Shown here one piece after another: positions 6,295-26,082 of a stretch of DNA of 64,000 nucleotides. The notes under the pieces are model-generated. The model made no database searches. It was not told the DNA's origin and saw only the letters and a list, made by a program, of their open reading frames with translations. The translations under genes and the position numbers were made by a program. Positions within the stretch are counted from its first letter, which is position 1, and each line of letters starts with the position of its first letter. The stretch is from assembly GCA_024639965.1 (NCBI GenBank), contig JAHEGC010000011.1, positions 12,263 through 76,262 of the forward strand. The letters run 5' to 3'. Origin of the DNA: Micrococcales bacterium. GTDB lineage: Bacteria; Actinomycetota; Actinomycetes; Actinomycetales; Microbacteriaceae.

Positions 6295-6379
6295 GGAGGG
6301 CTGTCCGAGCGGCCGATGGAGCTGGTCTTGAAAACCAGTGGGCAGCAATGTCTCGTGGGTTCGAATCCCACGCCCTCCG
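6295..6379 (+). tRNA. tRNA-Ser (anticodon TGA)
   Basis: Hand-folded cloverleaf. Acceptor GGAGGGC/GCCCTCC, anticodon arm CTGGT-cTTGAaa-ACCAG, long variable arm, T arm GTGGG-TTCGAAT-CCCAC, discriminator G. Confidence 0.85.
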
Positions 6380-6400
6380 CGCCAAAACCCGAGGAGAACT

Positions 6401-7627: not shown

Positions 7628-7635
7628 GAGCCACA

Positions 7636-8562
7636 ATCTCCGTTCGGATTGTTCTTCACATCGGCCCCATGAAGACGGGGACCGAGGCGCTCTCTGCGCG
7701 CTTCGTCGGCGCCGACCTGCCACCGTCGCTCATCGTTCCTCACGGGGACACCTGGACCCAGCCGCGCGCCGATGTGATCAAGCACCCCGAAATCATTCAC
7801 CTCGGAAAGCGCCGCGGTGCCGAAATTGATCGGCGCATCGGTGAAGTCGTTGCCGAAGCGCGAACGCGAAACCTGCCGAAGGTCACGATCCTGTTCATCG
7901 CCGAAGGCGTGAACGTGGTTCGGCAATCGTGGCGAATCGCCGAGCGTCTCGCGTCTCACGCCGATGAGGTCGAAATTGTGTTGTTCGCTCGCGGTCAGGT
8001 TTCCGCCGTTCCAAGTTGGATCGCACAGCGTGTTCAGTCGTGGAAAGAGACCAAGTTCGCCTCTCTAGACTTCGAACTCGATACCATCCCCGCCGGATCG
8101 AGTTATCGATACAACGAAATCGCCGCAGCATGGACCGGGCCGACCCACACCCTGACCGTCATCCCGCACCTCGAATCGGATCGCAAGGGCGATGCGCTCA
8201 TGGCCCGATTCGCGTCGTGGGCCAAAATCCCCGTACCGGACGATTCGGGTTCCCGCGTCAACGAGTCACTTGGGCGCGACGACCTTGTCGAACTGGCGGA
8301 ATTCAAGCGTCGATGGGCATGGGCTCGGGTTACTCCCGTTTCCAACGCAATCGCGACGGTGTTGTTCAACCGTATGCGTGCGCGATTCCGTCGCAACCCG
8401 AGGCCTCGCTGGGCGCTCACGCCCGCACAGAAGCGGGCAATCGCGGACTCTTATCTCGAATCGAATCGCGATCTCAAGAAGTTGCTCGGAAGCCAAGCCC
8501 GACGTGACGACTGGAAAGCGTGGTTCACCGAGGTCGAGAAATTCGCCTCGAATTCTCGATAA
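7636..8562 (+). CDS. Sulfotransferase-fold paralogue 1 (divergent family; start codon uncertain)
   Basis: Paralogue of 8719..9732 and 9732..10742. Has a degenerate PAPS 5'-phosphosulfate-loop-like HIGPMKTGTE and a 3'-phosphate-type R-x7-S (FARGQVSAVPS). The first canonical start (ATG 7669) lies inside the loop motif. AGGAG-N5-ATC at 7626..7638 would restore the conserved N-terminus. Confidence 0.5.
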   Translation: MSVRIVLHIGPMKTGTEALSARFVGADLPPSLIVPHGDTWTQPRADVIKHPEIIHLGKRRGAEIDRRIGEVVAEARTRNLPKVTILFIAEGVNVVRQSWRIAERLASHADEVEIVLFARGQVSAVPSWIAQRVQSWKETKFASLDFELDTIPAGSSYRYNEIAAAWTGPTHTLTVIPHLESDRKGDALMARFASWAKIPVPDDSGSRVNESLGRDDLVELAEFKRRWAWARVTPVSNAIATVLFNRMRARFRRNPRPRWALTPAQKRAIADSYLESNRDLKKLLGSQARRDDWKAWFTEVEKFASNSR

Positions 8563-8578
8563 CATGGAGTGTTGTACT

Positions 8579-8668
8579 GGAGACGTCGCATAGTTCGGCC
8601 TAGTGCACCACCCTGCTAAGGTGGAGTTCCTTTTTTGGGAACCGTGGGTTCAAATCCCACCGTCTCCG
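8579..8668 (+). tRNA. tRNA-Ser (anticodon GCT)
   Basis: Acceptor GGAGACG/CGTCTCC, anticodon arm CCACC-cTGCTaa-GGTGG, long variable arm, T arm GTGGG-TTCAAAT-CCCAC, discriminator G. Confidence 0.85.
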
Positions 8669-8718
8669 CTCGTCGGGCTGTTGAGCCCCACTCAATGTTC
8701 ATTTCGGGAGGACGGCCC

Positions 8719-9732
8719 ATGTCGAAGCCCAAGGCGATAATTCACATCGGACCCATGAAAACCGGAACCACGGCGTTGGGGTACTACTTTTCCGCTGCAA
8801 CCCGAGAGGGAATCCTTCCCGACAACGTGATTTATCCGTCCGGCGATTTGTGGTTCCCCGCTGCCGGAAAAATCGTCAAGCACAACGCGTTGTTCGATTT
8901 CATCTCCGACGAGACAAACACTCCGCGTTTCCGCAAGACAGCGGTTCAGACTCCTTCCGCCGTCGAAGAGAAGGTCCGCTTGGCCGCGGAATTCGCCGCC
9001 GGCCGTGGACGGGGCGCCACCGTCGTGTTCATCAGCGAGACACTCTCGGGTCGAAAGAACTCGCCGGAGCTCGTCACCATGATGTTGAAGTATTTCGAAT
9101 CGATCACGCTTGTTCTCAGCATCCGTTCATTCGCTGCGTCGGGGATGTCCTTCCTCGTTCACCGAATCAAGGATTGGCGCATCGAGCAACACGATCTGGA
9201 CCTTCTCGCCATGCTCCGCACGGGCGGAGAAAACTTCGGTGAGCGTTTCGTTTCCCGTATCGAACGATGGAAGGCGATTCCGAAAACCACTCTGGTTCTC
9301 GTTCCCTATTTCGAACAAGAGAACGATGGCTATTCCAGTGTCGATCGCTTTTACTCGCTGCTCACCGGTTCACCAGCGCCTCGCCTCGCCGAGGATTTCG
9401 GGTCCAAGCGTGTGCATCCCAGCCTGCCGCTCAATTCCCTCAAGCGGCTGATCAGCGTAAAACGCATCGGCCATCGCTTCGGTACACGCAGCCCTTTGGC
9501 GAAACTCGCACAGCTCCTCTTCATGCGAATCCTCGAACGAGACCGTTCGAAATCGATGTATTCGGGATTCGGCGAGCGGAACGCGGCCAAAGGCGACTGG
9601 GAGCTGACCGCCGCTGAGCGTGATGAAATTCGGCGCGCGTACGCACCGTCGTACGCCGCAATCAGGAAGCAACTGGGGTCAACGGCGAACTCCGACGAAT
9701 GGGAGCGGTGGTTCGCCGCCGAGGGCGTGTGA
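8719..9732 (+). CDS. Sulfotransferase-fold paralogue 2 (divergent family)
   Basis: ATG 8719 follows GGGAGGA; the ORF-track start 8635 overlaps the tRNA. Motifs: IIHIGPMKTGTT (compare HIPKTGGT[ST] of family-2 sulfotransferases), R-x7-S in LSIRSFAASGMS, and the C-terminal DEWERWF shared with the other paralogues. Confidence 0.55.
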   Translation: MSKPKAIIHIGPMKTGTTALGYYFSAATREGILPDNVIYPSGDLWFPAAGKIVKHNALFDFISDETNTPRFRKTAVQTPSAVEEKVRLAAEFAAGRGRGATVVFISETLSGRKNSPELVTMMLKYFESITLVLSIRSFAASGMSFLVHRIKDWRIEQHDLDLLAMLRTGGENFGERFVSRIERWKAIPKTTLVLVPYFEQENDGYSSVDRFYSLLTGSPAPRLAEDFGSKRVHPSLPLNSLKRLISVKRIGHRFGTRSPLAKLAQLLFMRILERDRSKSMYSGFGERNAAKGDWELTAAERDEIRRAYAPSYAAIRKQLGSTANSDEWERWFAAEGV

Positions 9733-10742
9733 TGGCAGGCTTCGCTCGAGTCGTCGTTCATCTCGGCCCCATGAAAACCGGGACCTCGGCGTTCGCCGCT
9801 CACCTTTCGATGGCGTCACTCGATGGCACGCTTCCACGAAACATCATTTATCCGGTCAACGACCACTGGTTCCCAGCGACCAGCAAAATCGTCAAGCACC
9901 ATGATCTCGTCGAAATTGCGCCATTCGTGCAGCCCGACGGCACCGTCCACGAGCGACGCACCACCGTCACTCCGGCGATGGTGGAGGAAAAATTGACCGA
10001 GGTGGCACATGAAGCGCGCCGCCGCGGCGACACAACAGTGATCCTCGTCTGTGAATTGGCCGACCAATTGGCCGATCCCGAGCAATTAGGCGCCCGATTG
10101 AGCGCAATCTTCGACAAAGTCGACTTCGTCATCGTGGCGCGACAGCAAGCGGAAGCTTTGCCGTCACTGCTGGGCCAGCAGGCGCGCATGTGGAAGCGCA
10201 AGCAGGTTCGTTCGCTCCGCATTGCACCGTTCCTTCGGTACCACCTCACACAACATTCCTATGACTACTCCTATTTGTGGTCGAAGTGGGCGCGCAAGGG
10301 TTCCACGTATGGCCTTCACTTTGTTCCCTACGTCAGCGGCTCCGGCGGGGGAAACGCACTGAGCCAGAACATTTTCGACCGACTCGGCTTGGGAACCTAC
10401 CCACTTCATCCAGAACTCGTGGCCGGCCCACGCATTCACACCTCGTTCTCGCGCCTCGGGATGCACATGTTGATTGGCGCCAAACGGCTGGAGCGTGCAA
10501 TCGGGTGGCTCCCCGGCGGATCGCGCCTCGCCGAGCGAGTCTTCGAGCGGTTCTTGGGCTTTTGCCACGCGCAACCCCGTCGTCAGGGCGATAAATTCGT
10601 TCCGTGGCGCCTGTCGCAGGGGGACCGTCGAAAGGTCGTTGACGCCTATCGGGGGTCCAACAGCCGTTTCCGGGTCTCCATGGGAACCGACGCGTCCACC
10701 CCCGACTGGACCGCTTGGTTCGACACGGTGGAGGCGTCATGA
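9732..10742 (+). CDS. Sulfotransferase-fold paralogue 3 (divergent family)
   Basis: ATG 9732 overlaps the upstream TGA (TGATG). Motifs: VVHLGPMKTGTS, VARQQAEALPS (R-x7-S) and C-terminal PDWTAWF. Confidence 0.55.
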   Translation: MAGFARVVVHLGPMKTGTSAFAAHLSMASLDGTLPRNIIYPVNDHWFPATSKIVKHHDLVEIAPFVQPDGTVHERRTTVTPAMVEEKLTEVAHEARRRGDTTVILVCELADQLADPEQLGARLSAIFDKVDFVIVARQQAEALPSLLGQQARMWKRKQVRSLRIAPFLRYHLTQHSYDYSYLWSKWARKGSTYGLHFVPYVSGSGGGNALSQNIFDRLGLGTYPLHPELVAGPRIHTSFSRLGMHMLIGAKRLERAIGWLPGGSRLAERVFERFLGFCHAQPRRQGDKFVPWRLSQGDRRKVVDAYRGSNSRFRVSMGTDASTPDWTAWFDTVEAS

Positions 10743-12076
10743 CTCGGTCACGGTCGTCGGTTCCCTTCGTCCTTGACGTGACGTCGGTTTCTGCACTCAA
10801 TTTCACGACCGGGGTCCAGCGCGTCGTTCGCGAATATCTCCGCGTCAACCGCACGGCGGTCGATCTAGTACAGTACGACCACAAGAGTGACACGTGGCGT
10901 GTGATTCCCGAACTTCCCACCTTGGTCACGCGCGAACGCGACGGCGCCGCCGCACGGGTTCGCGTTCTTGCGGAGAAATCCTCGAGCGCCATGGTGCGTG
11001 AGGTGATGCGCCCGCGATTGAAGGCGTTCCTCCGCGAGCTCCCATTCGCCCGTCGCGGATACGAGTGGTGGAAACAGGTCAATGCACGACACCTGCAGGC
11101 ACAGAAAGTCGTTCAAACCTACAAGTTGTCACAGCAGCCGGAATGGCAGCCGAAGGCGGGACAAACGTATGTGATGCTCGACTTGCCGTTGCGCAAAGAG
11201 CACGCGATGGCGATGGAGGATCTCTTCCGTCGGCCCGAGGTGAAGTCGATGGTGTATCTCCACGATCTTTTCCCACTGTCGCACCGCCACCTGTTCGATC
11301 GCGCGGGACATCAACGCGCGCGAACCCTGCACCTCATGTACCTCGACGCGGTCGCTCGAGCCGACGCGGTGGTCGCGAATTCGAAATTCACTCTCGGACA
11401 ATATCGAGATTTCTGCCGCGTTCTCGAAGAGAACTCTTACGAAACGCAAAAGACCGCGGTTGTGCACCTTCCTTGGCCGCACCTGGCGAAGTCGGGTGTT
11501 CCGAACCCCGGAATCGCGAACGTGATGTTCGGCTCGGCGGCGCTCGCGGTGCTGTTGATCGGTCAACTCGATAAGCGCAAGAACTTCCAGGTCGTCGTTC
11601 GAGCGGTCAAGACGTTGATCACCGAAGGTGTCGACGTCCGTCTCGGTATCCTCGCGGGGTACTCCACGCTGACTGACGACGTGCTTAAGGCGGAACTCGA
11701 CGAGTGCACCGACGAGCAACGATCGAGAATCTCAATCGAGGGTGTCGTCACCGATGAGGAACTCGTCGCGATATACGACGCCGCTCACGTGGTCGCTGTC
11801 CCGTCGGTCGCCGAAGGATTCGGACTTCCCGTGATCGAGGCGTTGAGTCGAGGCAAGCGTGTGGTGGCGTCCAGGGCGTCGGCACTGACTGAACTGGGCG
11901 ATGTCTTTGGACACGATGCTGTCACGGTCGTGGACCCCTACGATTCTGACGAATGGGCGAAGAAACTTCGTGCCACCGCGAAACGGGCACCACTCGCTCC
12001 GATGGGCATTCCCGCGTCGATCCCCTCCGATTGGGCGGATTTCCATGCGCGGCTTCTCGCCGTCGCGTCGAGCTAA
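10739..12076 (+). CDS. Glycosyltransferase family 4 (GT1-clan, retaining)
   Basis: ATG 10739 overlaps the upstream stop (ATGA). N-terminal FVLDVTSV...TGVQRVVRE and C-terminal VPSVAEGFGLPVIEAL (E-x7-E type). Confidence 0.8.
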   Translation: MTRSRSSVPFVLDVTSVSALNFTTGVQRVVREYLRVNRTAVDLVQYDHKSDTWRVIPELPTLVTRERDGAAARVRVLAEKSSSAMVREVMRPRLKAFLRELPFARRGYEWWKQVNARHLQAQKVVQTYKLSQQPEWQPKAGQTYVMLDLPLRKEHAMAMEDLFRRPEVKSMVYLHDLFPLSHRHLFDRAGHQRARTLHLMYLDAVARADAVVANSKFTLGQYRDFCRVLEENSYETQKTAVVHLPWPHLAKSGVPNPGIANVMFGSAALAVLLIGQLDKRKNFQVVVRAVKTLITEGVDVRLGILAGYSTLTDDVLKAELDECTDEQRSRISIEGVVTDEELVAIYDAAHVVAVPSVAEGFGLPVIEALSRGKRVVASRASALTELGDVFGHDAVTVVDPYDSDEWAKKLRATAKRAPLAPMGIPASIPSDWADFHARLLAVASS

Positions 12077-12987
12077 TCCTCTTCTTCGTCGGCGTCGAAC
12101 CCGTCCGGGCGCACCGCGCGGGCGGCCATGTTGGCGACAACCTCGGCGACCGTGATGAGTTTGAAGATCGATCGCATCGACAATGCCATGAGGACCAGCA
12201 GGAGCTTGTTGAACGCCTCGTCGACTCCCGACTCGACGTACATCCACGATTCGATGAACGCCGCACCGAGGGACAGAGGAAAGACGACGGCGAGGAGTGG
12301 CCAAATGATCGTGAATCGCTGCACGGGAAGCTTCGCGCGAAGGAGCATACGCTCGGTGTGTACGTGGATTTCGGTTTCCGCCTCGGCGTTACCCGCCGCC
12401 ATTAGTTCGTCGTGCATTTTGGCGTGAGCGACATCATTCTGTTCGAAAACCACGAGCCATTTCTTGACCGCTATGGCGAGATAGAACACGACCGACAGCA
12501 AGATAACCGAGATGATGATCGCCGACGGAATGTAGTTGTAGAGGAACAACGCGACGATGACTCCGAGCACGGTACCGACCGCCGTGGCAAGAAGCATCGT
12601 ACGGCCGAGCAGACGACCGCGCGCCATCATCTTCCACCGTCGTTGCTGATTCGTCATCGTGTCGGAGGACGTTCCGAGTTCGGCGAGCGAGATCTTTTTG
12701 AGGTTGAGGGTGTTGCGGCGTCGAAGGAAGTAGCGCAAGAGCCGCTGACCGTAGCCAGTGACCACCGCGGCGGACAATGCGATCAGCGCGAAGTCCCACG
12801 GCGGAAGCGCCCGCAACGCTCGGGAGAACGACAGCAGCCACGAGAACTGACGGATCCACTCCGGCACGTCGTTCGCTAGCAAAACACCGAGCAAGTAAAG
12901 GCCCGAAAAGCTCAACACGAACCCGATGAGGGTACGAATCGCAATCTCCCCGCCGAATCGGCGGGTGAGGAACAGTAGTTCGGGCAT
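12073..12987 (-). CDS. Hypothetical 6-TM membrane protein with acidic C-terminal tail
   Basis: 304 aa with about six hydrophobic helices, a charged central loop (KKISLAELGTSSDTMTNQQRRWK) and the tail DGFDADEEED. The ATG lies 5 nt downstream of the cysNC stop on the same strand. I recognise no family. Confidence 0.6.
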   Translation of the reverse strand: MPELLFLTRRFGGEIAIRTLIGFVLSFSGLYLLGVLLANDVPEWIRQFSWLLSFSRALRALPPWDFALIALSAAVVTGYGQRLLRYFLRRRNTLNLKKISLAELGTSSDTMTNQQRRWKMMARGRLLGRTMLLATAVGTVLGVIVALFLYNYIPSAIIISVILLSVVFYLAIAVKKWLVVFEQNDVAHAKMHDELMAAGNAEAETEIHVHTERMLLRAKLPVQRFTIIWPLLAVVFPLSLGAAFIESWMYVESGVDEAFNKLLLVLMALSMRSIFKLITVAEVVANMAARAVRPDGFDADEEED

Positions 12988-12992
12988 AGCGC

Positions 12993-14810
12993 TTAGATTC
13001 GACGGGCGAGAATCAGCCCGAGGAGCGTTTGCACGGACTCGTTCACGGGCTGTTCACCGTCGAGAGTGACGTCCGCGGCGAGCGGGGCTTCGTAACCCTG
13101 TCCGACACCCGTCATCTGCATCGTCGAATCCGCTTGGCTGCGGGCGTAAAGACCCTTCGGGTCGCGCTGCATGCAGACCTCGAGCGGAGTGTCAACGAAG
13201 ACCTCGAAGAAGTCGCCCTCGGCGAATCGTTCCTTCGCCATTTCGCGGTCTTCGCGGAACGGCGAGACGAGCGACACGATGACGACGAGTCCGGCTTCCA
13301 TCATGAGCTCGGCGACGCGCGCAACGCGACGCACGTTCTCTTTACGGTCTTCCGGCGAGAATCCGAGATCCTCGGAAAGGGTCGAGCGAACGGTGTCCCC
13401 GTCGAGGGTCGTCGAGCGAATGCCCATGGTCATGAGTGTCTTTTCGAGTTCGTCGGCGACGGTCGACTTTCCCGATCCGGGAAGTCCGGTGAGCCACAGA
13501 ACGCAGGAGCGGAGTCCGTTGAGTGCTTCGCGCTCGGCACGGCCGACAGCGAAGTCGTGCTTGACGACATCCGATTCACGAACGAGCGGGTGCTTCGACA
13601 TTCCCGCCGCGACGGTCATCGCGGTGAGTCGGTCAACGAGGATGAATCCGCCGGTGTGCATCGACTCCGCATACGGGTCGAGCAGAATGGGGCGGTCGGT
13701 GACAATCTCGACGCGACCAATCTCGTTCACCTCGAGGGCGTGGCCGCGGGCCTGCTCGCCGGTCGTGATGTCGCGAACGTAGCGAACGGTTTCTACGCGC
13801 GCGGGAACCTCGATCGGTCCGGCACGAAGAATGTACGACGCCTGGGGGTCGAGCGGCTTCGTATCAATCCACACCATGTCGGCGAGGTGAGCGCGCGACG
13901 AGGGCACCTCACCCTTCGCCCCGACGATGACGTCACCACGAGAGATGTCAACCTCGCGGTCGAGCGTGATGTGAACAGCTTGACCTTCGGCTGCATCCTT
14001 GGACTCGTTCGGAGCGTAGATCCCCTCGACGACGGCCTCGGTGAGGGCGGGCCACACGCGAATGGTGTCGCCAACCTTGACCGATCCGCGGGCGATGGTT
14101 CCCGAATACCAGCGGACGATGCCCGCCTTGGAAACAAACTGAACCGGGAGACGAAGCGATCCGTCGCCCGCCGAGTGGGAGAACGTGCGCTTCTGGTCGA
14201 GCGTGTCAAGAATCGTGACCTTGTCCGCCCACGCCATGTTCTCGGACGGACGGGTGACGTTGTCTCCCGTGAGTCCCGAAACGGGGATGAAAGTGAGATC
14301 CTCGAAGCCAAACTGGTCGAAGCGACGGGTCAGTTCCTCGACGATTCCGTCGAAGACACCCTTGTCGAAACCGACCGCGTCCATCTTGTTGACCGCGACG
14401 ATGATGTGCTTGACGCCCATGAGCGAGTTGATCGCGGCGTGACGGACCGACTGGTCGCGAACACCCTTCGCGGCATCGACGAGAAGAATTCCCATGTCGG
14501 CCTCACTCGCGGCCACGGCCATGTTGCGGGTGTATTGCTCGTGACCGGGCGAGTCGGCGAGAATCGCGCGGCGACCCGAGGGGAGATAGACGTGGCGGTG
14601 TGCCACATCGATCGTGATGCCCTGTTCGCGCTCGGATTCAAGACCGTCGGTCAGTTGCGAGAAGTCGACCTCGCCGTTCGACAGGCGACGGGTGTTGTCG
14701 ATCTCGTCGAGCGGGACCGAGTTGGTCTCGACGAGGAGTCGACCGAGCACGGTGGACTTTCCGTCGTCGACGGCTCCACAAACAACGATGCGAACGAGTG
14801 CGTCGGACAT
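12993..14810 (-). CDS. cysNC: Bifunctional sulfate adenylyltransferase subunit 1 / adenylylsulfate (APS) kinase
   Basis: N-terminal GTPase (GAVDDGKST, DSPGHEQY, NKMD). C-terminal APS kinase (LTGLPGSGKST, LDGDTVR, DLGFSPEDRKENVRR, DPKGLYA). Confidence 0.92.
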   Translation of the reverse strand: MSDALVRIVVCGAVDDGKSTVLGRLLVETNSVPLDEIDNTRRLSNGEVDFSQLTDGLESEREQGITIDVAHRHVYLPSGRRAILADSPGHEQYTRNMAVAASEADMGILLVDAAKGVRDQSVRHAAINSLMGVKHIIVAVNKMDAVGFDKGVFDGIVEELTRRFDQFGFEDLTFIPVSGLTGDNVTRPSENMAWADKVTILDTLDQKRTFSHSAGDGSLRLPVQFVSKAGIVRWYSGTIARGSVKVGDTIRVWPALTEAVVEGIYAPNESKDAAEGQAVHITLDREVDISRGDVIVGAKGEVPSSRAHLADMVWIDTKPLDPQASYILRAGPIEVPARVETVRYVRDITTGEQARGHALEVNEIGRVEIVTDRPILLDPYAESMHTGGFILVDRLTAMTVAAGMSKHPLVRESDVVKHDFAVGRAEREALNGLRSCVLWLTGLPGSGKSTVADELEKTLMTMGIRSTTLDGDTVRSTLSEDLGFSPEDRKENVRRVARVAELMMEAGLVVIVSLVSPFREDREMAKERFAEGDFFEVFVDTPLEVCMQRDPKGLYARSQADSTMQMTGVGQGYEAPLAADVTLDGEQPVNESVQTLLGLILARRI

Positions 14811-15784
14811 CAGAAATACCCCTCGTGCTTCTTGCGTTCCATGGACGAAGCGCCCTTGCCGTCGATGAGTCGACCGGCGCGCTCCGAGGTAGTTGACCGC
14901 GAGAGTTCGTCGATGATCTCGTCGAGCGAGCTCGCTTCACCTTCATCGGCCGCGGTGAGCGGGTAGCACCCGAGGGTGCGGAAACGGATGCGGCGCATGA
15001 CCGTCGACTCGCCCGGCTCGAGCGGGTAGCGGTCGTCATCGATCATGATGAGCTGGCCGTTGCGCTCGATGGTCGGGCGCTCCGCCGAGAAGTAGAGCGG
15101 GACGACTTCGAGATTCTCGCGACGGATGTACTTCCACACGTCGAGCTCGGTCCAGTTCGAGATGGGGAACGCGCGCATCGTCTGGTTCGGCTTGAGCGTC
15201 GAGTTGACGGTGTGCCAGAACTCCGGGCGCTGGCTCGACGGGTCCCAGGCGTGGCCGGGCTCGCGGAGGCTGAACATGCGCTCCTTGGCGCGCGAGCGCT
15301 CTTCGTCACGGCGAGCTCCACCGAGAGCGACGTCGTACCCGCCCGCATCGAGTGCGGCGCGGAGCGCGACGGTCTTCATCAGGCGGGTGTACTCGTCCGA
15401 ACCGTGAGTGAAGGGGGTGATTTTGTCGCCGCGACCGTCGGGGTTCGTGTACACGACCAAGTTGAGGTTGTTGTCGCGCGCAATGCGGTCGCGGAACTCG
15501 ATCATCTCGCGGAACTTCCACGTGGTGTCGATGTGGAGGACAGGGAAGGGAACGGGGGCGGGGGCGAAGGCCTTCACCGCGAGGTGAAGCAGAACTGTCG
15601 AATCCTTACCGATCGAGTAAAGAATGACGGGGTTCTGGAAAGCGCTGGCGGCCTCGCGAATGGCCCAAATCGCCTCGGCCTCGAGTGCGTCGAGGACGGC
15701 GTTTTCGTCGTTCGTGGTCTTGGCATTCACGGAATCAAGCCTACCGTCTCTGACCCTCGCCACCCGTTCCCCTCCATCAATCAT
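14810..15784 (-). CDS. cysD: Sulfate adenylyltransferase subunit 2
   Basis: PAPS-reductase-fold ATP sulfurylase small subunit (YSIGKDSTVLLHL, GARRDEERSRAKER, RFRTLGCYPLT). Its stop overlaps the cysNC start, and its start overlaps the permease stop by 8 nt. Confidence 0.9.
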   Translation of the reverse strand: MIDGGERVARVRDGRLDSVNAKTTNDENAVLDALEAEAIWAIREAASAFQNPVILYSIGKDSTVLLHLAVKAFAPAPVPFPVLHIDTTWKFREMIEFRDRIARDNNLNLVVYTNPDGRGDKITPFTHGSDEYTRLMKTVALRAALDAGGYDVALGGARRDEERSRAKERMFSLREPGHAWDPSSQRPEFWHTVNSTLKPNQTMRAFPISNWTELDVWKYIRRENLEVVPLYFSAERPTIERNGQLIMIDDDRYPLEPGESTVMRRIRFRTLGCYPLTAADEGEASSLDEIIDELSRSTTSERAGRLIDGKGASSMERKKHEGYF

Positions 15785-16601
15785 CGATCGCGAGACCGCG
15801 ATTTCGGCGAATTCGACGCGAAATCGACCCGAACACGCCGTCGACGATCATGCCGATGATGAGGATGACAATCATCGTGGCGATGAGCTCCGGAACCTTC
15901 GACATCTGACGAGCGAAGTCGAGCGTCGTACCGAGCGACGGCGTCTCGGCGATGATGACGAGAAGTTCACCCGCCATCAAGCTTCGCCACGCGAACGACC
16001 AACCCTGCACGAGCCCCGCGACGTAGGTGGGAAGCGCCGCGGGGAGAACAATGTCCCGGTACAGGGCGATGGGGCCAGCGCCGAGCACACGACCGAGCCG
16101 TGTGAAAGCCGGCGGCACGTGGTCGATTCCCGCGATGACGCCGTTCGCGATGGATGGCCCAGCGCCGAGCACAACGACGAAGAGGATTGCTTGCTCGTTG
16201 AGTCCGAACACGAGAATCGCGAGCGGGAACCACGCAATCGACGGCATGACCTGGAGTCCCGTGATGACGTTTCCCACGGCGAGGCGGAGCGGCTTCACGC
16301 GCGCGACCGCAATTCCGACGATGGATCCGAGAACGAGGGCCAGAATGAATCCGGTACCCGCGCGGGTCATCGTGGTTTTCACCGCGAGCCAGAAGCGTTC
16401 GGTTCCCACCATTTGATAGAGCGCTCCGAAGGTGTCACCCGGAGACGGCAACACGTAGCTCGGGCGCCAGCCGGAAAGAAAGAGCGCCTCCCACGCACCG
16501 ATGACCAGCGCGATGGCGAAGAGCTTCGGCCAACCCCACGACCAGGCGGCCGCGAGGCGTGCGCCGGCAGTGCGAGTGGCAGCGATGACGGTTTCGCTCA
16601 T
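15777..16601 (-). CDS. ABC transporter permease, NitT/TauT (aliphatic sulfonate/taurine-type) family
   Basis: 274 aa, about 6 TM, BPD_transp_1-like core. Overlaps the ATPase gene by 4 nt. Confidence 0.8.
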   Translation of the reverse strand: MSETVIAATRTAGARLAAAWSWGWPKLFAIALVIGAWEALFLSGWRPSYVLPSPGDTFGALYQMVGTERFWLAVKTTMTRAGTGFILALVLGSIVGIAVARVKPLRLAVGNVITGLQVMPSIAWFPLAILVFGLNEQAILFVVVLGAGPSIANGVIAGIDHVPPAFTRLGRVLGAGPIALYRDIVLPAALPTYVAGLVQGWSFAWRSLMAGELLVIIAETPSLGTTLDFARQMSKVPELIATMIVILIIGMIVDGVFGSISRRIRRNRGLAIDD

Positions 16602-17359
16602 GAGTCAGCTCCTTGAAGAACGGCCTGGCCGGCCTTGAGTCGGTTGGTGAGATCGGCGGCGCGCGTGGCGATGTCATTAGAGTCCATCTCGCGGGGTCGG
16701 GCCAGCGGAACGGACTGTTCGTGTACCACCCTCCCCGGCCGGCTTCCCATGAGAATGACGCGGTCGCCGAGGCGAACCGCTTCGCGCATGTTGTGCGTGA
16801 CGAACACGACCGTGAGGTTTTGGTCGCGCACGATGCTCTCGATCTCGTCGTGGAGATGATCGCGAGTCATCGCGTCGAGCGCTCCGAGCGGTTCATCCAT
16901 GAGAACAATGCGTGCACCTTGCGCAAGGCAACGCGCCAACGCGACGCGCTGCCGCATCCCACCCGAGAGTTCGTGCGGGCGTTTGTCGGCCCATTCGCCG
17001 AGGCGAACGATTGCGAGCAGTTCGTTGACACGTGTTTCACGGTCGGCGCGAGGAACTCCGGCGTAGGCGAGGGCGAGTTCGATGTTCTTGCGAGCGCTTA
17101 GCCACGGAAGCAAGGTCGCCTCCTGGAACATCAGTGCGACCTTGCCGTTGACGGTGATGGTTCCCGAGGTCGGCTTATCGAGCCCCGCGAACAGGTTGAG
17201 GAGCGTCGACTTGCCACAGCCCGATGCTCCAACGATGGTGACGAATTCTCCCGCGCGAATTGTCATGTCGACACCGGAGAGCGCGACGGTTGCCGCGCCC
17301 TCCGGGCCGAATGACTTGGTGACGCTATCCGCGCGGAGAATGATCTCCGCGTTAGCCAT
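16598..17359 (-). CDS. ABC transporter ATP-binding protein (SsuB/TauB-like)
   Basis: Walker A GASGCGKST, signature LSGGMRQRV, Walker B IVLMDEP, H-loop VTHNM. Confidence 0.88.
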   Translation of the reverse strand: MANAEIILRADSVTKSFGPEGAATVALSGVDMTIRAGEFVTIVGASGCGKSTLLNLFAGLDKPTSGTITVNGKVALMFQEATLLPWLSARKNIELALAYAGVPRADRETRVNELLAIVRLGEWADKRPHELSGGMRQRVALARCLAQGARIVLMDEPLGALDAMTRDHLHDEIESIVRDQNLTVVFVTHNMREAVRLGDRVILMGSRPGRVVHEQSVPLARPREMDSNDIATRAADLTNRLKAGQAVLQGADS

Positions 17360-18435
17360 TACTGAATCGCATCCTCTCCGCGCTCGGCACGAACCGCGTT
17401 GAGCAGGTCGAGCGAGTAGAGCGTTCCCGGCAAGCCGCCGGCGGCGTCGATGCCCGACTGCTCGAGGAGCCCAGCGGACACGGCGTGTTCGGCCGAGGTC
17501 ACGAGGGTGTCCTTGAGCGGGTCAGCGGTGAACGTCACGTTCTCCCACGCCGCGTCGAGAATGGCGGGGTCGATCGACGAGCCGGTGAGGCCGGCGAGGG
17601 CGAGGTTGACGGCGTCCTTGGCGGCCGCGGGGTCACTCGCGATGAGGTCGAGAGCGGCGAGGTGCCCCTTGATCAACGCGGTCACCGCGTCGGGGTGCTG
17701 GTCGATGAAGTCGGTGCGGCAGAGGATGACGGTCGTGACGAACTCACCGTTCGGCCACAGATCGGCTTCGTTCTGGAGAACGTGTGCACCGTTCGCGACG
17801 AACGACGACACCCAGGGCTCGGGAACCCACGCGCCGTCGATGTCCCCCGACGAGAACGCGGCGAGTGCGTCGGAGTTCGACTGGGGCTTGATGGAGACAT
17901 CTCCGCCCCCGTCGACGTCGGCGGTGAGTCCCTGATCGGTGAGCCAGTTCCGCGCCGCGACATCCTGAGTGTTCCCGAGTTGCGGTGTGGCGATGGTCAA
18001 GCCAGCAAGATCGGCGGCGGTGTTGACCCCGTCACGCACAACGAGGGCAGCCCCGCCCGAGGTGGAACCGGCAACAATTCGAACCGCCGCACCCTCGGAC
18101 TGAACGTACGCATTGATCGCGGGGTTCGGCCCGATGTATGAGCAATCGAGCGAATCGGCGAAGAGCGCGGTGACAACATCCGGACCAGCGTTGAACGCGG
18201 TCGGGGTAAGGGTGAGGTCGAGCGCCTTGAGCTCGGTCTTGAACAGACCCTTTTGTGTAGCGATGAGGCCCGGGGCGTGCGTGAGGTTGGGAAAGTACCC
18301 AAGGCGAACCGTGGTGATCTCTGGCACAGCGGGGGAGTCATTCGTGGTGGGTGAGGTCGTCGCACAACCGGCGACGGCAAGAGCGGCGACGGTCGCGAGT
18401 GCGATCGAAGCCCCAAGACGGGAGTTGTTTTTCAT
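17359..18435 (-). CDS. ABC transporter substrate-binding lipoprotein (SsuA/NMT1-like)
   Basis: Signal peptide with lipobox LAVAGC. The NMT1/THI5-like periplasmic binding fold is inferred from context and length. Confidence 0.75.
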   Translation of the reverse strand: MKNNSRLGASIALATVAALAVAGCATTSPTTNDSPAVPEITTVRLGYFPNLTHAPGLIATQKGLFKTELKALDLTLTPTAFNAGPDVVTALFADSLDCSYIGPNPAINAYVQSEGAAVRIVAGSTSGGAALVVRDGVNTAADLAGLTIATPQLGNTQDVAARNWLTDQGLTADVDGGGDVSIKPQSNSDALAAFSSGDIDGAWVPEPWVSSFVANGAHVLQNEADLWPNGEFVTTVILCRTDFIDQHPDAVTALIKGHLAALDLIASDPAAAKDAVNLALAGLTGSSIDPAILDAAWENVTFTADPLKDTLVTSAEHAVSAGLLEQSGIDAAGGLPGTLYSLDLLNAVRAERGEDAIQ

Positions 18436-18585
18436 GTTGTCCTTTCCGATAGTTTGTCTATCGTGTTAGTAGAGAATATAGACAAGATGGGGAAACGTGT
18501 CAAGTCGGCACGGACGGCGTGTGTCGGCGCGCCAGGTTGCCGTAACATTGAGGAGAAATTTCCCCTTCGAAAAAGGATTAGTAAC

Positions 18586-20856
18586 GTGGCCATGACAATC
18601 CGTTCGATCGCCGCCTTTATTGCTGCCGTTGCCCTCTCGTTCATTCCGACCGCCGCACAGGCTGTCGACGACCCGACGACGGTTGCCGTGACAGTGGGCG
18701 GCATCGCACCAACGTCGATTGAACAGGACGACCAACTTGACATCGTTACCCGTGGCCCGATCGCGCAGATCGGCTCGGCGATTCACACGCTGTCCACCGC
18801 GTGGAGCACGCAGAGCCTTCATCTCAAAGGAACGGGTAAATACGACGCCGTTTCCAACCCCGACGGCATCATCGTTCCTCAGGGATGGGCGTTGCAGTAT
18901 TCGACCGATGGAACAAACTTCTCGAACGATGTGCCCAGTGACCCCGACACGATCGTGGCGGTTCGCTCCCGCGGTGACGTGAAGACCAAGGCTCGTGGAC
19001 GATTCGAGACGACGACCACCGGTGAGGAAGTAGCGACGGTCGGGTCGTTCGGTGGCACGGCAGCGGGTGACGGGTTCAACGTTGCCTTCGGCGACGGCTT
19101 TCTGCTCAACTCGTGGCATCATGACCCTTCGGCGCTCAATGTTGAATGCCATTTGATCGACGGCTCAGAGTGCGCCGATTACATCTACACAGTGAGCGGT
19201 TATCAAACCGGGCAGGCGTCGAATCTTTATTTCGATAAGACGACGGACCGCGTTTACACCTACGTTCGCGAGGTTTCGTCGGGAGATATCGGAGTGTATT
19301 GCCTGGATTATTCCGATATCGGAAACGGAAACGTCTCGAACTGCCCGACGGCGTTCACGCCACTCGTGGATCTGGCTCCGGGCGGTACAGGCTTTAGTGT
19401 TCGCGGTTCCAACACATCGCGCTACGGCAACCGAATCTGGGCGCTCGATGTAAGCCAAGGCGACCTGCTGTGTTTCGACATCACCACCAATGCTGAATGT
19501 GGTGACGGGCTCAATGGGTTCAACGTGGGTGCCGCCGGACCGACGTCCGACGGACTGACGAAGGCCCGAGTTGCGGCATGGGGTGGCAGGGTTTACTTCA
19601 CCGTCAACAACAAAATGGGCTGTTTCGACCCGACGAGCACGCCCGCGTCATTGTGTGGTGAACCCGACAGCACCCCTATCGATATTCCTGCTGCTGTATA
19701 TGACACCACGTTCAACCGACACATTCCGCTTCCCGTGAAGAACACGGATGGAACCTTTTTCGGCACGTGTGACTTGAACTCGAGACTCTGCATTGACGCG
19801 AACGGCGCCACCGTGACGATGCCGACGGGTTTGTCGAGCTACCTCGTGGCACATCCCGCAAACAACAAAATCGCGGGTCAGAACGCTCAAGATTGGGCGA
19901 TTTCGGGAACGAAGATGTATTACCCCGGACCGCAGAGTTCAGCCGGTCAGAACCCCTATGGAACCGACTGGTCGTCGACAATCATCTGTTGGGACTACGC
20001 CACCGATGCGCTGTGTTCTTCGTGGGATGATTCGCCGGCCGGCATCTATCTCCCCTACACGGCTAATGTCGACCCCGACAACCCCAGCTGCGTGTGGGTC
20101 AACCAAGACAAGGGATGGGCTCCGTATCTCCCGACATATGCGGGAAAGATCATCCCGCTCAATGCCGCGACGGGCGAAGTGGGTTGTTCGTTTGGTGACC
20201 CCGTAATCGAGCTCCCCTACTCGAGTGTTGTTCCCCGAATGAGTTGCACGGGCGACGGTCGCGTGACCGCGTGGCAGGAAATGTTGCTCGAACTCGGCAC
20301 GCTCGACAACACTGACATTTCAGTAACTGTTTATGATTCCGACGATGTCGCCATTACCGGCTGGGAAGACCTCACGCCAGCGATAGACGGGACAATTGAC
20401 ATGTCGACGCTGTCGGTGGAAGACACCGGGCTGACCCCGTCGATTCAGATCACGGGACTTGGTGATGTCGCGATCGATGAACTTCTCGATGTCACGGGTG
20501 TTGTGACGTTCGATGCGGAAGAGCCGGAGATGTGTGTGAAGCTCGTCGCGGCAACGAATTGTCCTGATGCTGAGATGAATGTTCCCGGTGTCCCCGATGT
20601 TCCTGCGGGAATCGTTGAGGGTGCCAGTGTGACGACGCCGTTAGCTGCGGGAAGTGACGTGGGGAGCAACGAGCGCGTCACGATTGCGGGAACGAACACG
20701 GGGCATTTGTGTGCGGCGAGCATTATGGGTGATGCGACGAAGACTCCTGAGTTGGCGTCGACCGGTTTTGATCCGGGCGGGCTTGCGCTGGGTGGTTTCG
20801 GTGTTCTTGCTGCCGGATTGGGTGCGGTAGCCGCATCACGCCGGCGACGCGCCTAG
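18586..20856 (+). CDS. Sortase-anchored (LAxTG) secreted surface protein with repeated Cys-pair units
   Basis: GTG 18586 or ATG 18592 follows AAGGA. Signal peptide ends ...IPTAAQA|VDD. C-terminal sorting signal is LASTG, a hydrophobic segment and RRRRA. The central region carries about 7 spaced C-x(5-15)-C units. Confidence 0.75.
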   Translation: MAMTIRSIAAFIAAVALSFIPTAAQAVDDPTTVAVTVGGIAPTSIEQDDQLDIVTRGPIAQIGSAIHTLSTAWSTQSLHLKGTGKYDAVSNPDGIIVPQGWALQYSTDGTNFSNDVPSDPDTIVAVRSRGDVKTKARGRFETTTTGEEVATVGSFGGTAAGDGFNVAFGDGFLLNSWHHDPSALNVECHLIDGSECADYIYTVSGYQTGQASNLYFDKTTDRVYTYVREVSSGDIGVYCLDYSDIGNGNVSNCPTAFTPLVDLAPGGTGFSVRGSNTSRYGNRIWALDVSQGDLLCFDITTNAECGDGLNGFNVGAAGPTSDGLTKARVAAWGGRVYFTVNNKMGCFDPTSTPASLCGEPDSTPIDIPAAVYDTTFNRHIPLPVKNTDGTFFGTCDLNSRLCIDANGATVTMPTGLSSYLVAHPANNKIAGQNAQDWAISGTKMYYPGPQSSAGQNPYGTDWSSTIICWDYATDALCSSWDDSPAGIYLPYTANVDPDNPSCVWVNQDKGWAPYLPTYAGKIIPLNAATGEVGCSFGDPVIELPYSSVVPRMSCTGDGRVTAWQEMLLELGTLDNTDISVTVYDSDDVAITGWEDLTPAIDGTIDMSTLSVEDTGLTPSIQITGLGDVAIDELLDVTGVVTFDAEEPEMCVKLVAATNCPDAEMNVPGVPDVPAGIVEGASVTTPLAAGSDVGSNERVTIAGTNTGHLCAASIMGDATKTPELASTGFDPGGLALGGFGVLAAGLGAVAASRRRRA

Positions 20857-23900: not shown

Positions 23901-23907
23901 TTCGCCG

Positions 23908-26007: not shown

Positions 26008-26080
26008 GCGCCCGTAGCTCAACGGATAGAGTATCTGACTACGGATCAGACGGTTGGGGGTTCGAATCCCTCCGGGCGCG
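26008..26080 (+). tRNA. tRNA-Arg (anticodon ACG)
   Basis: Acceptor GCGCCCG/CGGGCGC, D arm AGCTCAACGGATAGAG, anticodon loop cTACGGa, T loop TTCGAAT. Confidence 0.9.
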
Positions 26081-26082
26081 CT

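Follow-up and report, generated by a model that had tools for sequence, protein, structure and literature searches.

A sulfate-activation operon in a probable wall-glycopolymer locus

The 64-kb stretch of DNA analysed here (the window) probably carries a sulfate-activation (PAPS-supply) operon within a fast-evolving, tRNA-bracketed wall-glycopolymer locus of an uncultured Microbacteriaceae lineage, and we consider it likely that this operon is a dedicated source of PAPS for the sulfation of a wall-linked glycan. The window was compared with three related metagenomic genomes, L084, L086 and L091. Six tightly packed, co-directional genes span positions 12073-18435 on the minus strand in the order SsuA-family lipoprotein, ABC ATPase, permease, CysD, CysN-CysC fusion and a 6-TM protein (TM304); the initial annotation gave the number as seven, although its own list names six. 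It also described 0-8 nt overlaps or a 5-nt gap between the genes. This was correct for the junctions other than permease/CysD (overlaps of 1, 4 and 1 nt and a 5-nt gap), but an 8-nt overlap between permease and CysD requires CysD to start at ATG 15784. The CysD start is ambiguous: the protein is called in the relatives with 306 aa from a GTG equivalent to 15730, leaving a 46-nt gap to the permease, and a further GTG at 15763 has GGAGG 7 nt upstream and leaves a 13-nt gap. A sigma-70-like promoter, TTGACA-17-TATATT (18475-18503, minus strand; 11/12 match), lies upstream of ssuA as the sole promoter-like site in 7 kb and is followed by a conserved palindromic block. Its -35 and -10 elements and the next ~30 nt are kept in L091 while the flanks diverge, and this one promoter may drive all six genes.

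The small subunit of sulfate adenylyltransferase, CysD (14810-15730 with the GTG 15730 start, minus strand), scored 441.5 bits against TIGR02039 (cut-off 396.6). The fusion protein of the CysN GTPase subunit and the CysC APS kinase (12993-14810, minus strand) matched TIGR02034 (417 bits) and TIGR00455 (219 bits, cut-off 138.7), and is 40-46% identical to alphaproteobacterial CysNC and NodQ-like proteins. The CysN part contains the G motifs GAVDDGKS (G1), DSPGH (G3) and NKMD (G4), read from the sequence; the APS_kinase domain (PF01583, residues 434-584, 4e-59) contains GLPGSGKST at 442, LDGD at 469 and DPKGLY at 550. Among the relatives all motifs of the kinase domain are intact and its dN/dS is 0.023-0.055, revealing strong purifying selection. 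CysD and CysN would be expected to produce APS from sulfate and ATP, hydrolysing GTP in the process, and the fused CysC domain to phosphorylate APS to PAPS. Pfam scans of all plausibly coding ORFs of at least 180 aa in the 64 kb identified no CysH, sulfite reductase, CysK or CysE, and a tblastn search of the window with CysD (E ≤ 10) returned only CysD itself, in agreement with the earlier claim that these reductive and cysteine-synthesis genes are missing from the window.

The first operon gene (17359-18435, minus strand) encodes an SsuA-family (NMT1_2) substrate-binding lipoprotein (PF13379, 2.4e-36) with the lipobox ...LAVAGC (Cys24) in its signal peptide. It is followed by an importer ATPase of the NitT/TauT/Ssu type (16598-17359, minus strand; PF00005, 1e-31), for which the best NCBIfam matches (SaoA, NtrCD and SsuB-like) all fell under their equivalog cut-offs, and by a permease (15777-16601, minus strand; PF00528 (BPD_transp_1), 1.2e-17). 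The lipoprotein and permease have orthologues in L091 with 81% (same position) and 87% identity, respectively. Since the SsuABC importer is missing from the corresponding site in the other two relatives, it is an optional front end and not a fixed part of the system. The SsuABC-type importer would take up a sulfur source; as the window encodes no sulfonate monooxygenase, sulfate is the simplest candidate. The binding protein itself scores as an aliphatic-sulfonate binder (TIGR01728, 172.6 bits, cut-off 163.5) and not as a sulfate binder, which counts against sulfate supply.

Sulfotransferase-like genes and their glycosyltransferase neighbours

Exactly five sulfotransferase-like genes were counted in the window, as initially annotated, and their placement beside glycosyltransferases was also borne out. 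Only two gave Pfam matches (Sulfotransfer_3, 1e-30 and 3e-20). The first (23908-24792; PF13469, 1.2e-30) lies between a DegT-family sugar aminotransferase (PF01041, 3.7e-32) and a GT61 glycosyltransferase (24789-25940; PF04577, 1.7e-15) in a plus-strand set at 22827-25940 joined by a 7-nt gap and then a 4-nt overlap. A tRNA-Arg(ACG) gene (26008-26081, plus strand), conserved at the L084 end, marks the far edge of this variable glycan/sulfation island. The second (40744-41472, plus strand; PF13469, 3.1e-20; PF00685, 3.2e-9) is divergent from a GtrB/ArnC-like GT2 gene (39551-40525, minus strand; PF00535, 1.2e-29; best NCBIfam matches ArnC and PgfS).

The other three form a cluster of orphan sulfotransferase-like (STL) paralogues at 7636-10742 on the plus strand. 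STL1 (7636-8562) has an inferred AUC start: in all four genomes the codons 5' of its first ATG encode conserved amino acids, and AGGAG lies 6-7 nt 5' of the ATC/ATA codon in three of the four, with a weaker AGG in L086. A tRNA-Ser(GCT) gene (8579-8669, plus strand; 93% conserved in L086) separates it from STL2 (8719-9732; ATG 8719, GGGAGG upstream), which shares 29% identity and motifs with STL3 (9732-10742). The STL3 stop overlaps, as ATGA, the start of a GT4 glycosyltransferase gene (10739-12076, plus strand; PF13692, 1.9e-17; PF00534, 6.8e-15), which is convergent on the TM304 gene with a 4-nt overlap.

The STLs had no sequence match in Pfam, NCBIfam or the PDB, and this orphan family is tied to sulfotransferases only via motifs, predicted fold and transitive profile matches. 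They might instead be P-loop kinase-like proteins such as glycan or sugar kinases, leaving the two Sulfotransfer_3 enzymes as the only users of PAPS. The AlphaFold2 model of STL3 (pLDDT 91.7) had sulfotransferases (3rnl, 8cd0) as its top matches by TM-score, but P-loop kinases and GTPases ranked beside them in Foldseek, where the best E-value was weak (5.6e-4) and the top E-values belonged to MeaB and zeta-toxin kinases. The kinase matches, however, reached TM-scores of just 0.22-0.27 compared with 0.39-0.51 for sulfotransferases. Sulfotransferases carry a 5'-PSB motif, K-x-G-T-T, and a 3'-PB motif with Arg and Ser eight residues apart. The invariant residues of STL3, K15-T16-G17-T18 and R137...S145 (R-x7-S), agree with both, and the lysine of its G-P-M-K-T-G-T-S loop lies outside the Walker-A GK[ST] position. 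Among 79 distant matches to the STL profile, 13 carried Sulfotransfer_3, 10 Sulfotransfer_1 and 5 Sulfotransfer_4 domains, with no competing family; P0204 and P0183 have a single domain, and in both the profile match falls on the region of the Pfam domain. A kinase identity for the STLs is very improbable.

The operon and glycan genes are linked across related genomes

In L084 and L086, the order VanY-PheA-SerS-HAD-LCP-STLx3/4-GT4-(GT61) runs against TM304-CysNC-CysD; in L091, the full six-gene operon is convergent on GT4-STLx3-LCP. LCP-STLx3/4-GT4 is thus convergent on TM304-CysNC-CysD in all three relatives, and because the arrangement of operon and STL genes recurs in three other genomes it is not due to chance. 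The encoded proteins fell into a slow class (CysNC 86-93% identity, CysD 88-94%, SsuABC 81-87%, SerS/PheA 83-89%) and a fast class (STL1 41-45%, STL2 45-61%, STL3 46-93%, GT4 49-92%, TM304 46-84%), with linkage kept even where the glycan genes are down to 41-49% identity. The portions of the relatives' loci that were retrieved contain no homologue of either Sulfotransfer_3 gene. The initial proposal that the operon feeds all five sulfotransferases consequently stands for the STL cluster, given its linkage in three relatives and the intact kinase domain, while the two distant genes are tentatively connected to the operon by proximity. Overall, the conserved linkage and the intact kinase domain under purifying selection strongly support CysD/CysNC as the predicted supplier of PAPS to adjoining sulfotransferases that act on a cell-envelope glycan.

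An unlikely alternative is that the operon serves plain or dual-use assimilation as the sole sulfate uptake and activation system, with CysH elsewhere reducing APS or PAPS and sulfotransferase proximity being secondary. CysD, CysNC and SsuABC evolve at the pace of housekeeping genes, and more distant SsuABC/SBP homologues adjoin an Rrf2-type regulator, which suggests general sulfur acquisition. The view covers 64 kb of the genome, and a reductase elsewhere would mean a dual role as in Mycobacterium tuberculosis, where CysDNC serves both branches and also feeds the APS reductase CysH (PMC3141025). In contrast, four genomes preserve the linkage to the STL, GT4 and LCP genes despite turnover of the surrounding glycan genes. 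The fused kinase is strongly conserved, yet organisms with an APS reductase need no CysC for Cys or Met; as the initial annotation had assumed, APS is the branch point in M. tuberculosis and PAPS is used only by sulfotransferases (PMC3141025). Moreover, Pontimonas salivibrio, a related marine species with CysD-CysNC and five clustered sulfotransferases, has neither a PAPS reductase nor a sulfite reductase and depends on Cys and Met in culture, and other representative Microbacteriaceae are reported to lack sulfate assimilation (PMC6106888). We infer that the operon is used mainly, or even exclusively, for the sulfation branch.

TM304 is predicted to resemble the membrane domain of ABC exporters

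TM304 (12073-12987, minus strand; 304 aa) follows CysNC in all genomes seen. It had no match to a curated family (Pfam, NCBIfam) and no significant sequence match to solved structures, and its family comprises just 61 clusters in 5.8e9 proteins. The AlphaFold2 model (pLDDT 77.6, pTM 0.74) predicted six long helices extending into the cytoplasm, and its top 50 Foldseek matches in the PDB were all ABC-exporter membrane domains (prob 0.97-1.0, TMq 0.29-0.53); weak PF00664 matches were found in 5 of 31 family members (best 4e-4). TM304 thus models as a type-IV ABC-exporter membrane domain but, unlike those exporters, without a nucleotide-binding domain (NBD), and two relatives that lack SsuB offer no partner NBD. 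Type-IV ABC exporters include MsbA, PglK, IrtAB and CydDC, of which MsbA and PglK flip lipid-linked glycans. SbmA/BacA transporters have no NBD, and SbmA demonstrates that such a fold can function in the absence of an ATPase; the top 50 structural matches of TM304 did not include SbmA. The divergence of TM304 tracks that of STL3 and GT4 in each genome. TM304 would be part of a variable cassette specific to the glycan, and its most likely function is to move a glycan intermediate across the membrane; a role in sulfate uptake is less likely. The window showed neither a CysQ (PAP phosphatase) nor an initiating phosphoglycosyl transferase, and no flippase could be recognised in it.

Candidate target of sulfation

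Upstream of STL1 lies a gene for a LytR-CpsA-Psr (LCP) glycopolymer-to-peptidoglycan ligase (6401-7627, plus strand; PF03816, 6e-34), with its start placed 3' of a tRNA-Ser gene (6295-6380). The STL1 AGGAG overlaps the LCP stop codon in the window, and in all four genomes translational coupling of LCP and STL1 is predicted. In the proposed pathway, soluble cytoplasmic sulfotransferases (three old STL paralogues and two Sulfotransfer_3 enzymes) would place sulfate on sugars of a lipid-linked glycan that the neighbouring GT4, GT61 and GT2 enzymes assemble, and LCP would attach the polymer to peptidoglycan. It is considerably less probable that the product is instead a secreted exopolysaccharide, glycolipid, small molecule or surface protein. 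The stretch from the operon to the second sulfotransferase cluster includes a gene for an 800-aa LAxTG sortase-substrate protein; M. tuberculosis sulfotransferases act on trehalose lipids and menaquinone, and RaxST sulfates a peptide. The LCP-STL1 coupling argues for a wall-linked product, as does the glycosyltransferase adjoining every sulfotransferase gene. The relatives that retain the module do not have the LAxTG protein, and genes for PKS, NRPS or lipid assembly are missing from the surroundings.

Comparison with known sulfation systems

By analogy, NodPQ/NodH, RaxPQ/RaxST and the M. tuberculosis sulfation branch are functional precedents. In rhizobia, NodP (a CysD homologue) and NodQ (a CysN-CysC fusion) are encoded in one cluster with NodH, a PAPS-dependent carbohydrate sulfotransferase, and the PAPS they make is reserved for the sulfation of a glycoconjugate. 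NodPQ exists as an additional copy beside housekeeping cysDN, and the NodH acceptor is a secreted lipochitooligosaccharide of a Gram-negative symbiont; we know of no linked importer, LCP or TM304 in that system, unlike the window. In M. tuberculosis, the sulfotransferase genes are dispersed across the genome, and sulfate enters via SubI-CysTWA in place of an SsuABC-type importer. Its CysD and fused CysNC, acting with Stf0-3, resemble the actinobacterial proteins of the window (PMC3141025).

The statement that envelope sulfation is largely uncharacterised outside mycobacteria proved overstated. A comparable case is the wps-1 exopolysaccharide cluster of the actinomycete Actinoplanes missouriensis (AEM 2026), in which two sulfotransferase genes and an adjacent sulfate adenylyltransferase/APS-kinase gene accompany polysaccharide genes, as in the window; mutants in the sulfation genes have a phenotype and a sulfated polysaccharide was proposed (PMC13390465). 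However, wps-1 directs a Wzx/Wzy-dependent exopolysaccharide of the sporangium matrix, the sulfotransferases of the cluster fall into recognised InterPro families, unlike the STLs, and its description mentions neither LCP coupling nor SsuABC or TM304 (PMC13390465). The idea of a sulfated wall glycan was itself already proposed, from genome sequence, for P. salivibrio CL-TW6 (genes C3B54_118-1110 and C3B54_1118-1125; BMC Genomics 2018, PMC6106888). Here, too, a member of the Microbacteriaceae encodes CysD and a CysN-CysC fusion beside a membrane protein, with the five sulfotransferases clustered with glycosyltransferases. The P. salivibrio membrane partner, however, is of the TauE/SafE family as opposed to TM304 or SsuABC, its CysD has an extra N-terminal domain, and the genes lie at another chromosomal site and not at the pheA-serS-tRNA-LCP site.

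A six-gene operon carries the predicted enzymes of PAPS synthesis

Analysis of the minus strand between 12073 and 18435 revealed six open reading frames, one fewer than the seven co-directional genes counted in the initial annotation. In order of transcription, these encode an SsuA-family lipoprotein (17359-18435; TIGR01728 172.6 bits, cut-off 163.5; PF13379 2.4e-36; lipobox Cys24), an ABC ATPase (16598-17359), a BPD_transp_1 permease (15777-16601), CysD (ending at 14810; TIGR02039 441.5 bits, cut-off 396.6; NF009214 439.5 bits, cut-off 413), a CysN-CysC fusion (CysNC, 12993-14810; TIGR02034 417 bits, cut-off 336; TIGR00455 219 bits, cut-off 138.7) and TM304, a 304-aa protein with six hydrophobic segments (12073-12987). 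The coding status of all genes, TM304 included, was supported by a GC3 of 0.66-0.85. CysD cleared the curated threshold for the small subunit of the GTP-dependent heterodimeric ATP sulfurylase CysD/CysN. The CysN part scored above threshold as an EF-Tu-like GTPase, and its G1 (GAVDDGKS), G3 (DSPGH) and G4 (NKMD) motifs were read from the translation. The APS-kinase domain spans residues 434-584 of CysNC (PF01583 4e-59) and carries the P-loop GxxGxGKST and the LDGD magnesium site, with the motifs at 442, 469 and 550 identical in three genomes. The dN/dS of this domain was 0.023-0.055 at near-saturated synonymous divergence, with the motifs unaltered; this purifying selection supports the predicted function of the CysC domain in converting APS to PAPS.

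The genes are tightly packed. Four junctions consist of three overlaps (1, 4 and 1 nt) and one gap of 5 nt. The 8-nt overlap reported for permease and CysD proved to depend on the choice of start codon. It requires that CysD begin at ATG 15784. Nucleotide homology with a transporter-less relative ends at 15749/15750, the CysD start in that relative is a GTG equivalent to 15730, and an alternative GTG at 15763 is preceded by GGAGG 7 nt upstream. Because the CysD start is ambiguous, the junction is either an 8-nt overlap or a gap of 13 or 46 nt.

The sole promoter-like site in 7 kb was a near-consensus TTGACA-17-TATATT (18503-18475), some 40 nt upstream of ssuA. Together with the palindromic block that follows, it is kept in L091, a related metagenomic locus whose flanks have diverged. 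This block of about 30 nt (within 18440-18503, minus strand) contains the inverted repeats GTCTAT...ATAGAC and GATAG-N5-CTATC and overlaps the -10 box and leader of the promoter; the same block is present in L091 at 9925-10000. Its conservation between diverged flanks makes it a candidate operator for a repressor. No regulator is encoded next to it in the window. An Rfam scan identified no riboswitch upstream of the operon, the three tRNAs of the window being the only matches, and a terminator scan remained at background level.

No reductive branch is encoded in the window

A Pfam scan of all plausibly coding window ORFs of at least 180 aa found no CysH, sulfite reductase, CysK or CysE, in agreement with the initial annotation. 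No CysD paralogue was found in the window either: with CysD as tblastn query (E ≤ 10), the only match was CysD itself. The remainder of the window encodes pheA, serS, a HAD hydrolase, the LCP ligase described below, an inositol catabolism cluster and genes for aromatic and aldehyde catabolism. The absence of reductive genes therefore holds within the 64-kb window only, and with 64 kb of the genome visible we give even odds that the whole genome is devoid of this branch.

In Mycobacterium tuberculosis, the pathway branches at APS, and sulfation is the only use of PAPS (PMC3141025), so the premise from which the operon was originally interpreted is correct. The core of that interpretation, PAPS supply, is well supported by our analysis; the claim that supply is exclusive to sulfation is not. 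The observation itself was essentially right, and the operon probably does supply PAPS to the sulfotransferases encoded around it.

Three of the five sulfotransferase-like genes belong to a family that has no curated model

All five sulfotransferase-fold genes listed initially were retained, and each adjoins a glycosyltransferase gene (GT4, GT61 or GT2), as had been claimed. Two were recognized directly as Sulfotransfer_3 enzymes, at 23908-24792 (PF13469 107.9 bits, cut-off 27, 1e-30) and 40744-41472 (PF13469 73.8 bits, cut-off 27, 3e-20). The other three, STL1-3 (sulfotransferase-like, 7636-10742, plus strand), form a tandem array with 26-29% identity among themselves. These proteins gave no match to Pfam even at E ≤ 5 among 43 family members, and no NCBIfam or PDB sequence match. 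The family comprises 59 clusters among 5.8 billion proteins, all annotated as hypothetical.

Comparison of 43-48 STL sequences revealed an invariant K15-T16-G17-T18 directly after the first strand and an invariant S145, with R137, eight residues before it, conserved in at least 90%. We take the K-T-G-T element to be the 5'-PSB loop (K-x-G-T-T/S after beta-1) and the R...S pair to be the 3'-PB PAPS-binding motif; the loop lysine lies outside the Walker-A position. In structural searches with an AlphaFold model (pLDDT 91.7, pTM 0.89), the top TM-scores were to sulfotransferases (3rnl, TMt 0.51; NDST1, TMq 0.41), with weak E-values. TPST2 and Teg14 were also among the matches, and P-loop kinases and GTPases scored a TM of 0.22-0.27. 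A profile search of 1.84 billion representatives returned 249 proteins. Among 79 distant matches, Sulfotransfer_3 was found in 13, Sulfotransfer_1 in 10 and Sulfotransfer_4 in 5, and no competing family recurred; their consensus was LHIGxxKTGTTxxQ...RxQxxxxxSxY. In two single-domain proteins, P0204 and P0183, the Pfam sulfotransferase domain and the STL-profile match covered the same residues (27.3 bits in P0204, gathering score 22). On the basis of motifs, predicted fold and transitive homology, we place the STLs in the sulfotransferase superfamily and accept STL1-3 as putative sulfotransferase-fold genes that have no direct match to a curated model.

A fourth STL paralogue (356 aa) was identified at 10972-12042 in the related genome L086 (GCA_024639935.1), which also has an extra GT61 between GT4 and TM304; STL copy number thus varies among genomes.

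STL1 is coupled to the LCP ligase gene

Upstream of STL1 lies a gene for a LytR-CpsA-Psr (LCP) glycopolymer-to-peptidoglycan ligase (6401-7627, plus strand). Its TAG stop (7625-7627) forms part of an AGGAG, and an AUC codon at 7636 lies 6 nt downstream. Automated gene calls shorten STL1 to a start at 'MKTGT'. The 11 codons before this first ATG encode a conserved peptide, I-(S/G)-V-R-I-(V/I)-L-H-(I/L)-G-P, with synonymous changes in four genomes (window 7621-7671; L084 ~7900-7935; L091 ~20754-20800, minus strand; L086 ~7880-7935), and this peptide corresponds to the beta-1 strand and the beginning of the PAPS loop. AGGAG stands 6-7 nt upstream of the AUC or AUA codon, with a weaker AGG alone in L086. 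Given this conservation with synonymous changes, translation of STL1 appears to start at a non-canonical codon, AUC in the window and AUA or AUC in the relatives. The translational coupling of LCP and STL1 strengthens the link between the ligase and the sulfation genes.

A conserved, probable PAPS-supply core within a variable glycan locus

The window derives from an uncultured actinobacterium, probably of the Microbacteriaceae; a taxonomic name, 'MAG: Microbacteriaceae bacterium', was attached to a single family member. Contigs identical to the window were present in Logan assemblies SRR12825408-14. Three related loci were also compared: L084 (an ENA metagenome scaffold; SerS 89% identical to the window), L086 (an NCBI assembly; SerS 86% identical) and L091 (an ENA scaffold). 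In all three, LCP, three or four STLs and GT4 (10739-12076 in the window, plus strand) converge on TM304, CysNC and CysD, so that CysD/CysNC are genetically linked to sulfotransferase and acceptor-building genes in four genomes. In L091, SsuA, the ATPase and the permease lie directly upstream of CysD, matching the window; the transporter is missing from this site in L084 and L086.

Identity to the window fell into two classes. The slow class comprised CysNC (86-93%), CysD (88-94%), SsuABC (81-87%) and SerS/PheA (83-89%), and the fast class STL1 (41-45%), STL2 (45-61%), STL3 (46-93%), GT4 (49-92%) and TM304 (46-84%), with the divergence of TM304 tracking that of STL3 and GT4 in each genome. A search of genome contigs with CysNC gave at least 600 matches, which rest on a conserved HEQYTRNM pattern and give no reliable measure of the rarity of this lineage; among the matches listed, relatives had at most 51% identity and none had STL, TM304 or sulfotransferase neighbours.

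Three tRNA genes, tRNA-Ser(TGA) at 6295-6380, tRNA-Ser(GCT) at 8579-8669 and tRNA-Arg(ACG) at 26008-26081, bracket and split the glycan/sulfation locus. Between tRNA-Ser(GCT) and tRNA-Arg, gene content varies in the four genomes and involves SsuABC, an LAxTG protein, a DegT-sulfotransferase-GT61 set, an epimerase and an extra STL. This layout resembles a hypervariable surface-glycan island, flanked by tRNAs, in which the PAPS-supply core is conserved.

The LAxTG protein (18454-20856, plus strand; 800 aa) is secreted, and its C-terminus combines a LASTG sortase signal with a hydrophobic anchor and an RRRRA tail. Its gene has the ssuA promoter on one side and the second sulfotransferase cluster on the other. 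It gave no Pfam or NCBIfam match and was not found at this position in any of the three relatives.

The gene calls of a sister scaffold, L085 (ERZ18640674), lacked CysNC; this apparent loss was rejected, as tblastn found CysNC residues 1-549 intact. A net deletion of about 250 nt crosses the CysNC/TM304 junction (12345-14825). The APS-kinase domain loses its final ~56 residues and TM304 its initial ~59, and CysNC is then not called. The deletion may be an assembly artefact or a loss-of-function variant that occurs in nature.

An SsuABC-type importer precedes the sulfate-activation genes

The binding protein passed the SsuA-family threshold, and the ATPase and permease scored under the SsuB and SsuC equivalog cut-offs. 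SsuD and SsuE, the FMNH2-dependent monooxygenase and its reductase, were found neither in the window nor beside the homologues in L091 and in L092 and L093, two loci with more distant SsuABC homologues (62-63% identity) that are followed by an Rrf2 regulator. No compositional anomaly marked the SsuABC insertion (GC3 0.73-0.80, neighbours alike). Sulfonate breakdown yields sulfite, and ATP sulfurylase requires sulfate. From the co-transcription of ssuABC and cysD, the predicted cargo is therefore sulfate or a sulfate-yielding compound.

TM304 resembles the membrane domain of ABC exporters

TM304 belongs to a family of 61 clusters and matched no curated family (Pfam, NCBIfam) and no PDB sequence. 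Its predicted model consists of long helices (pLDDT 77.6, pTM 0.74). The best 50 PDB structural matches (Foldseek) were type-IV ABC-exporter membrane domains (probability 0.97-1.0, TMq 0.29-0.53), including IrtAB, PCAT1, MsbA, CydDC, TmrAB and McjD, and weak PF00664 matches were obtained for 5 of 31 family members (best 4e-4). By this model, TM304 has the six-long-helix membrane domain of the type-IV exporters. No fused or adjacent nucleotide-binding domain (NBD) was identified, and the operons of L084 and L086 are free of any ABC ATPase.

A role in sulfate uptake as a CysZ/TauE-type permease was considered and rejected: TM304 gave no match to such a family, has another fold, and its divergence keeps pace with that of the glycan genes. 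Because it has no NBD, is ATPase-less in two relatives and varies with the glycan genes and not with CysDNC, we favour a role in glycan handling, in which TM304 would flip or export a lipid-linked glycan intermediate.

A proposed route to a sulfated wall glycopolymer and its precedents

In the proposed route, a sulfur source would be imported, CysD and CysN would form APS using GTP, and CysC would convert APS to PAPS. The STLs and Sulfotransfer_3 enzymes would then sulfate a lipid-linked glycan in the cytoplasm, the glycan would cross the membrane with TM304 as the candidate carrier, and LCP would attach it to peptidoglycan. That the sulfated product is a wall-linked glycopolymer is, by a narrow margin, the outcome we expect.

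Among dedicated PAPS modules, rhizobial NodPQ/NodH and Xanthomonas RaxPQ/RaxST are the classical cases, and the window module is like them in linking CysD/CysNC to sulfotransferase and acceptor-building genes. The closest precedent is the genome paper on Pontimonas salivibrio, a member of the Microbacteriaceae, the probable family of the window organism. P. salivibrio encodes CysD, CysNC, a TauE/SafE-family membrane protein and five clustered sulfotransferases beside glycosyltransferases, lacks both PAPS reductase and sulfite reductase, and requires Cys and Met in culture; its authors explicitly concluded that sulfate is activated for sulfating cell-wall components (PMC6106888). Sulfated cell-envelope glycoconjugates had initially been presented as largely uncharacterised outside the mycobacterial sulfolipids, which is overstated since the same idea was anticipated there. 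In Actinoplanes missouriensis, a sulfated EPS has been proposed, still unverified, to which a 2026 study ties sulfotransferases and a neighbouring ATP-sulfurylase/APS-kinase gene; the same paper describes bacterial sulfated polysaccharides as known from cyanobacteria only (PMC13390465). The concept is thus not new, being preceded by NodPQ/NodH, the M. tuberculosis sulfation branch and the Pontimonas paper. New here are the STL family, TM304, the SsuABC front end and the LCP-coupled, tRNA-bracketed setting.

No chemically proven sulfated wall polymer from Microbacteriaceae was found in the literature searched, and none from any Gram-positive bacterium in the searchable literature. The locus offers a compact testable set that unites PAPS supply with an LCP ligase, an unusual membrane protein and five candidate sulfotransferases, of which three come from a family that has no curated model; several environmental genomes keep this set. 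If the proposal is borne out, sulfate esters would join the anionic groups known from Gram-positive walls. It would further explain why organisms unable to assimilate sulfate retain ATP sulfurylase and APS kinase, and would be a source of new polysaccharide sulfotransferases. A bolder reading, which we consider improbable, is that a planktonic Microbacteriaceae lineage has no assimilatory sulfate reduction and activates sulfate solely for a sulfated peptidoglycan-linked polymer, whose sulfate esters would replace teichoic-acid phosphate as the anionic charge of the wall; the STLs would be a previously unrecognised sulfotransferase family that builds it, and TM304 a new NBD-less handler of ABC-exporter fold, genetically coupled to the sulfate-activating complex. 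Sulfate in place of phosphate would then save phosphorus in P-poor waters.

Other gene sets in the window

At 22827-25940 (plus strand), genes for a DegT-family sugar aminotransferase, a Sulfotransfer_3 enzyme and a GT61 follow one another, joined by a gap of 7 nt and an overlap of 4 nt. The trio points to an amino or deoxyamino sugar unit as the target of sulfation; it was not found in the fetched regions of the relatives. The aldehyde dehydrogenase at 21296-22693 was rejected as a glycan gene, being a succinate-semialdehyde dehydrogenase (NF006916 659 bits, cut-off 521).

In the segment 47334-62686, glutamine-synthetase-like genes (Gln-synt_C) recur several times, accompanied by genes for class-I amidotransferase/Peptidase_C26 and aldehyde dehydrogenase and by an amino-acid permease; these sets resemble multiple gamma-glutamyl-amine (Puu-like) catabolic sets. 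The segment 35730-42419 looks like a second envelope-glycan module. It encodes two polytopic membrane proteins of 570 and 720 aa (8-9 TM, no family match) that might be GT-C-like, a GtrB/ArnC/PgfS-like polyprenyl-phosphate GT2 with two C-terminal TM helices, the divergent Sulfotransfer_3 gene and an LPG_synthase_TM protein; the two large genes have a strong AT skew (0.19).
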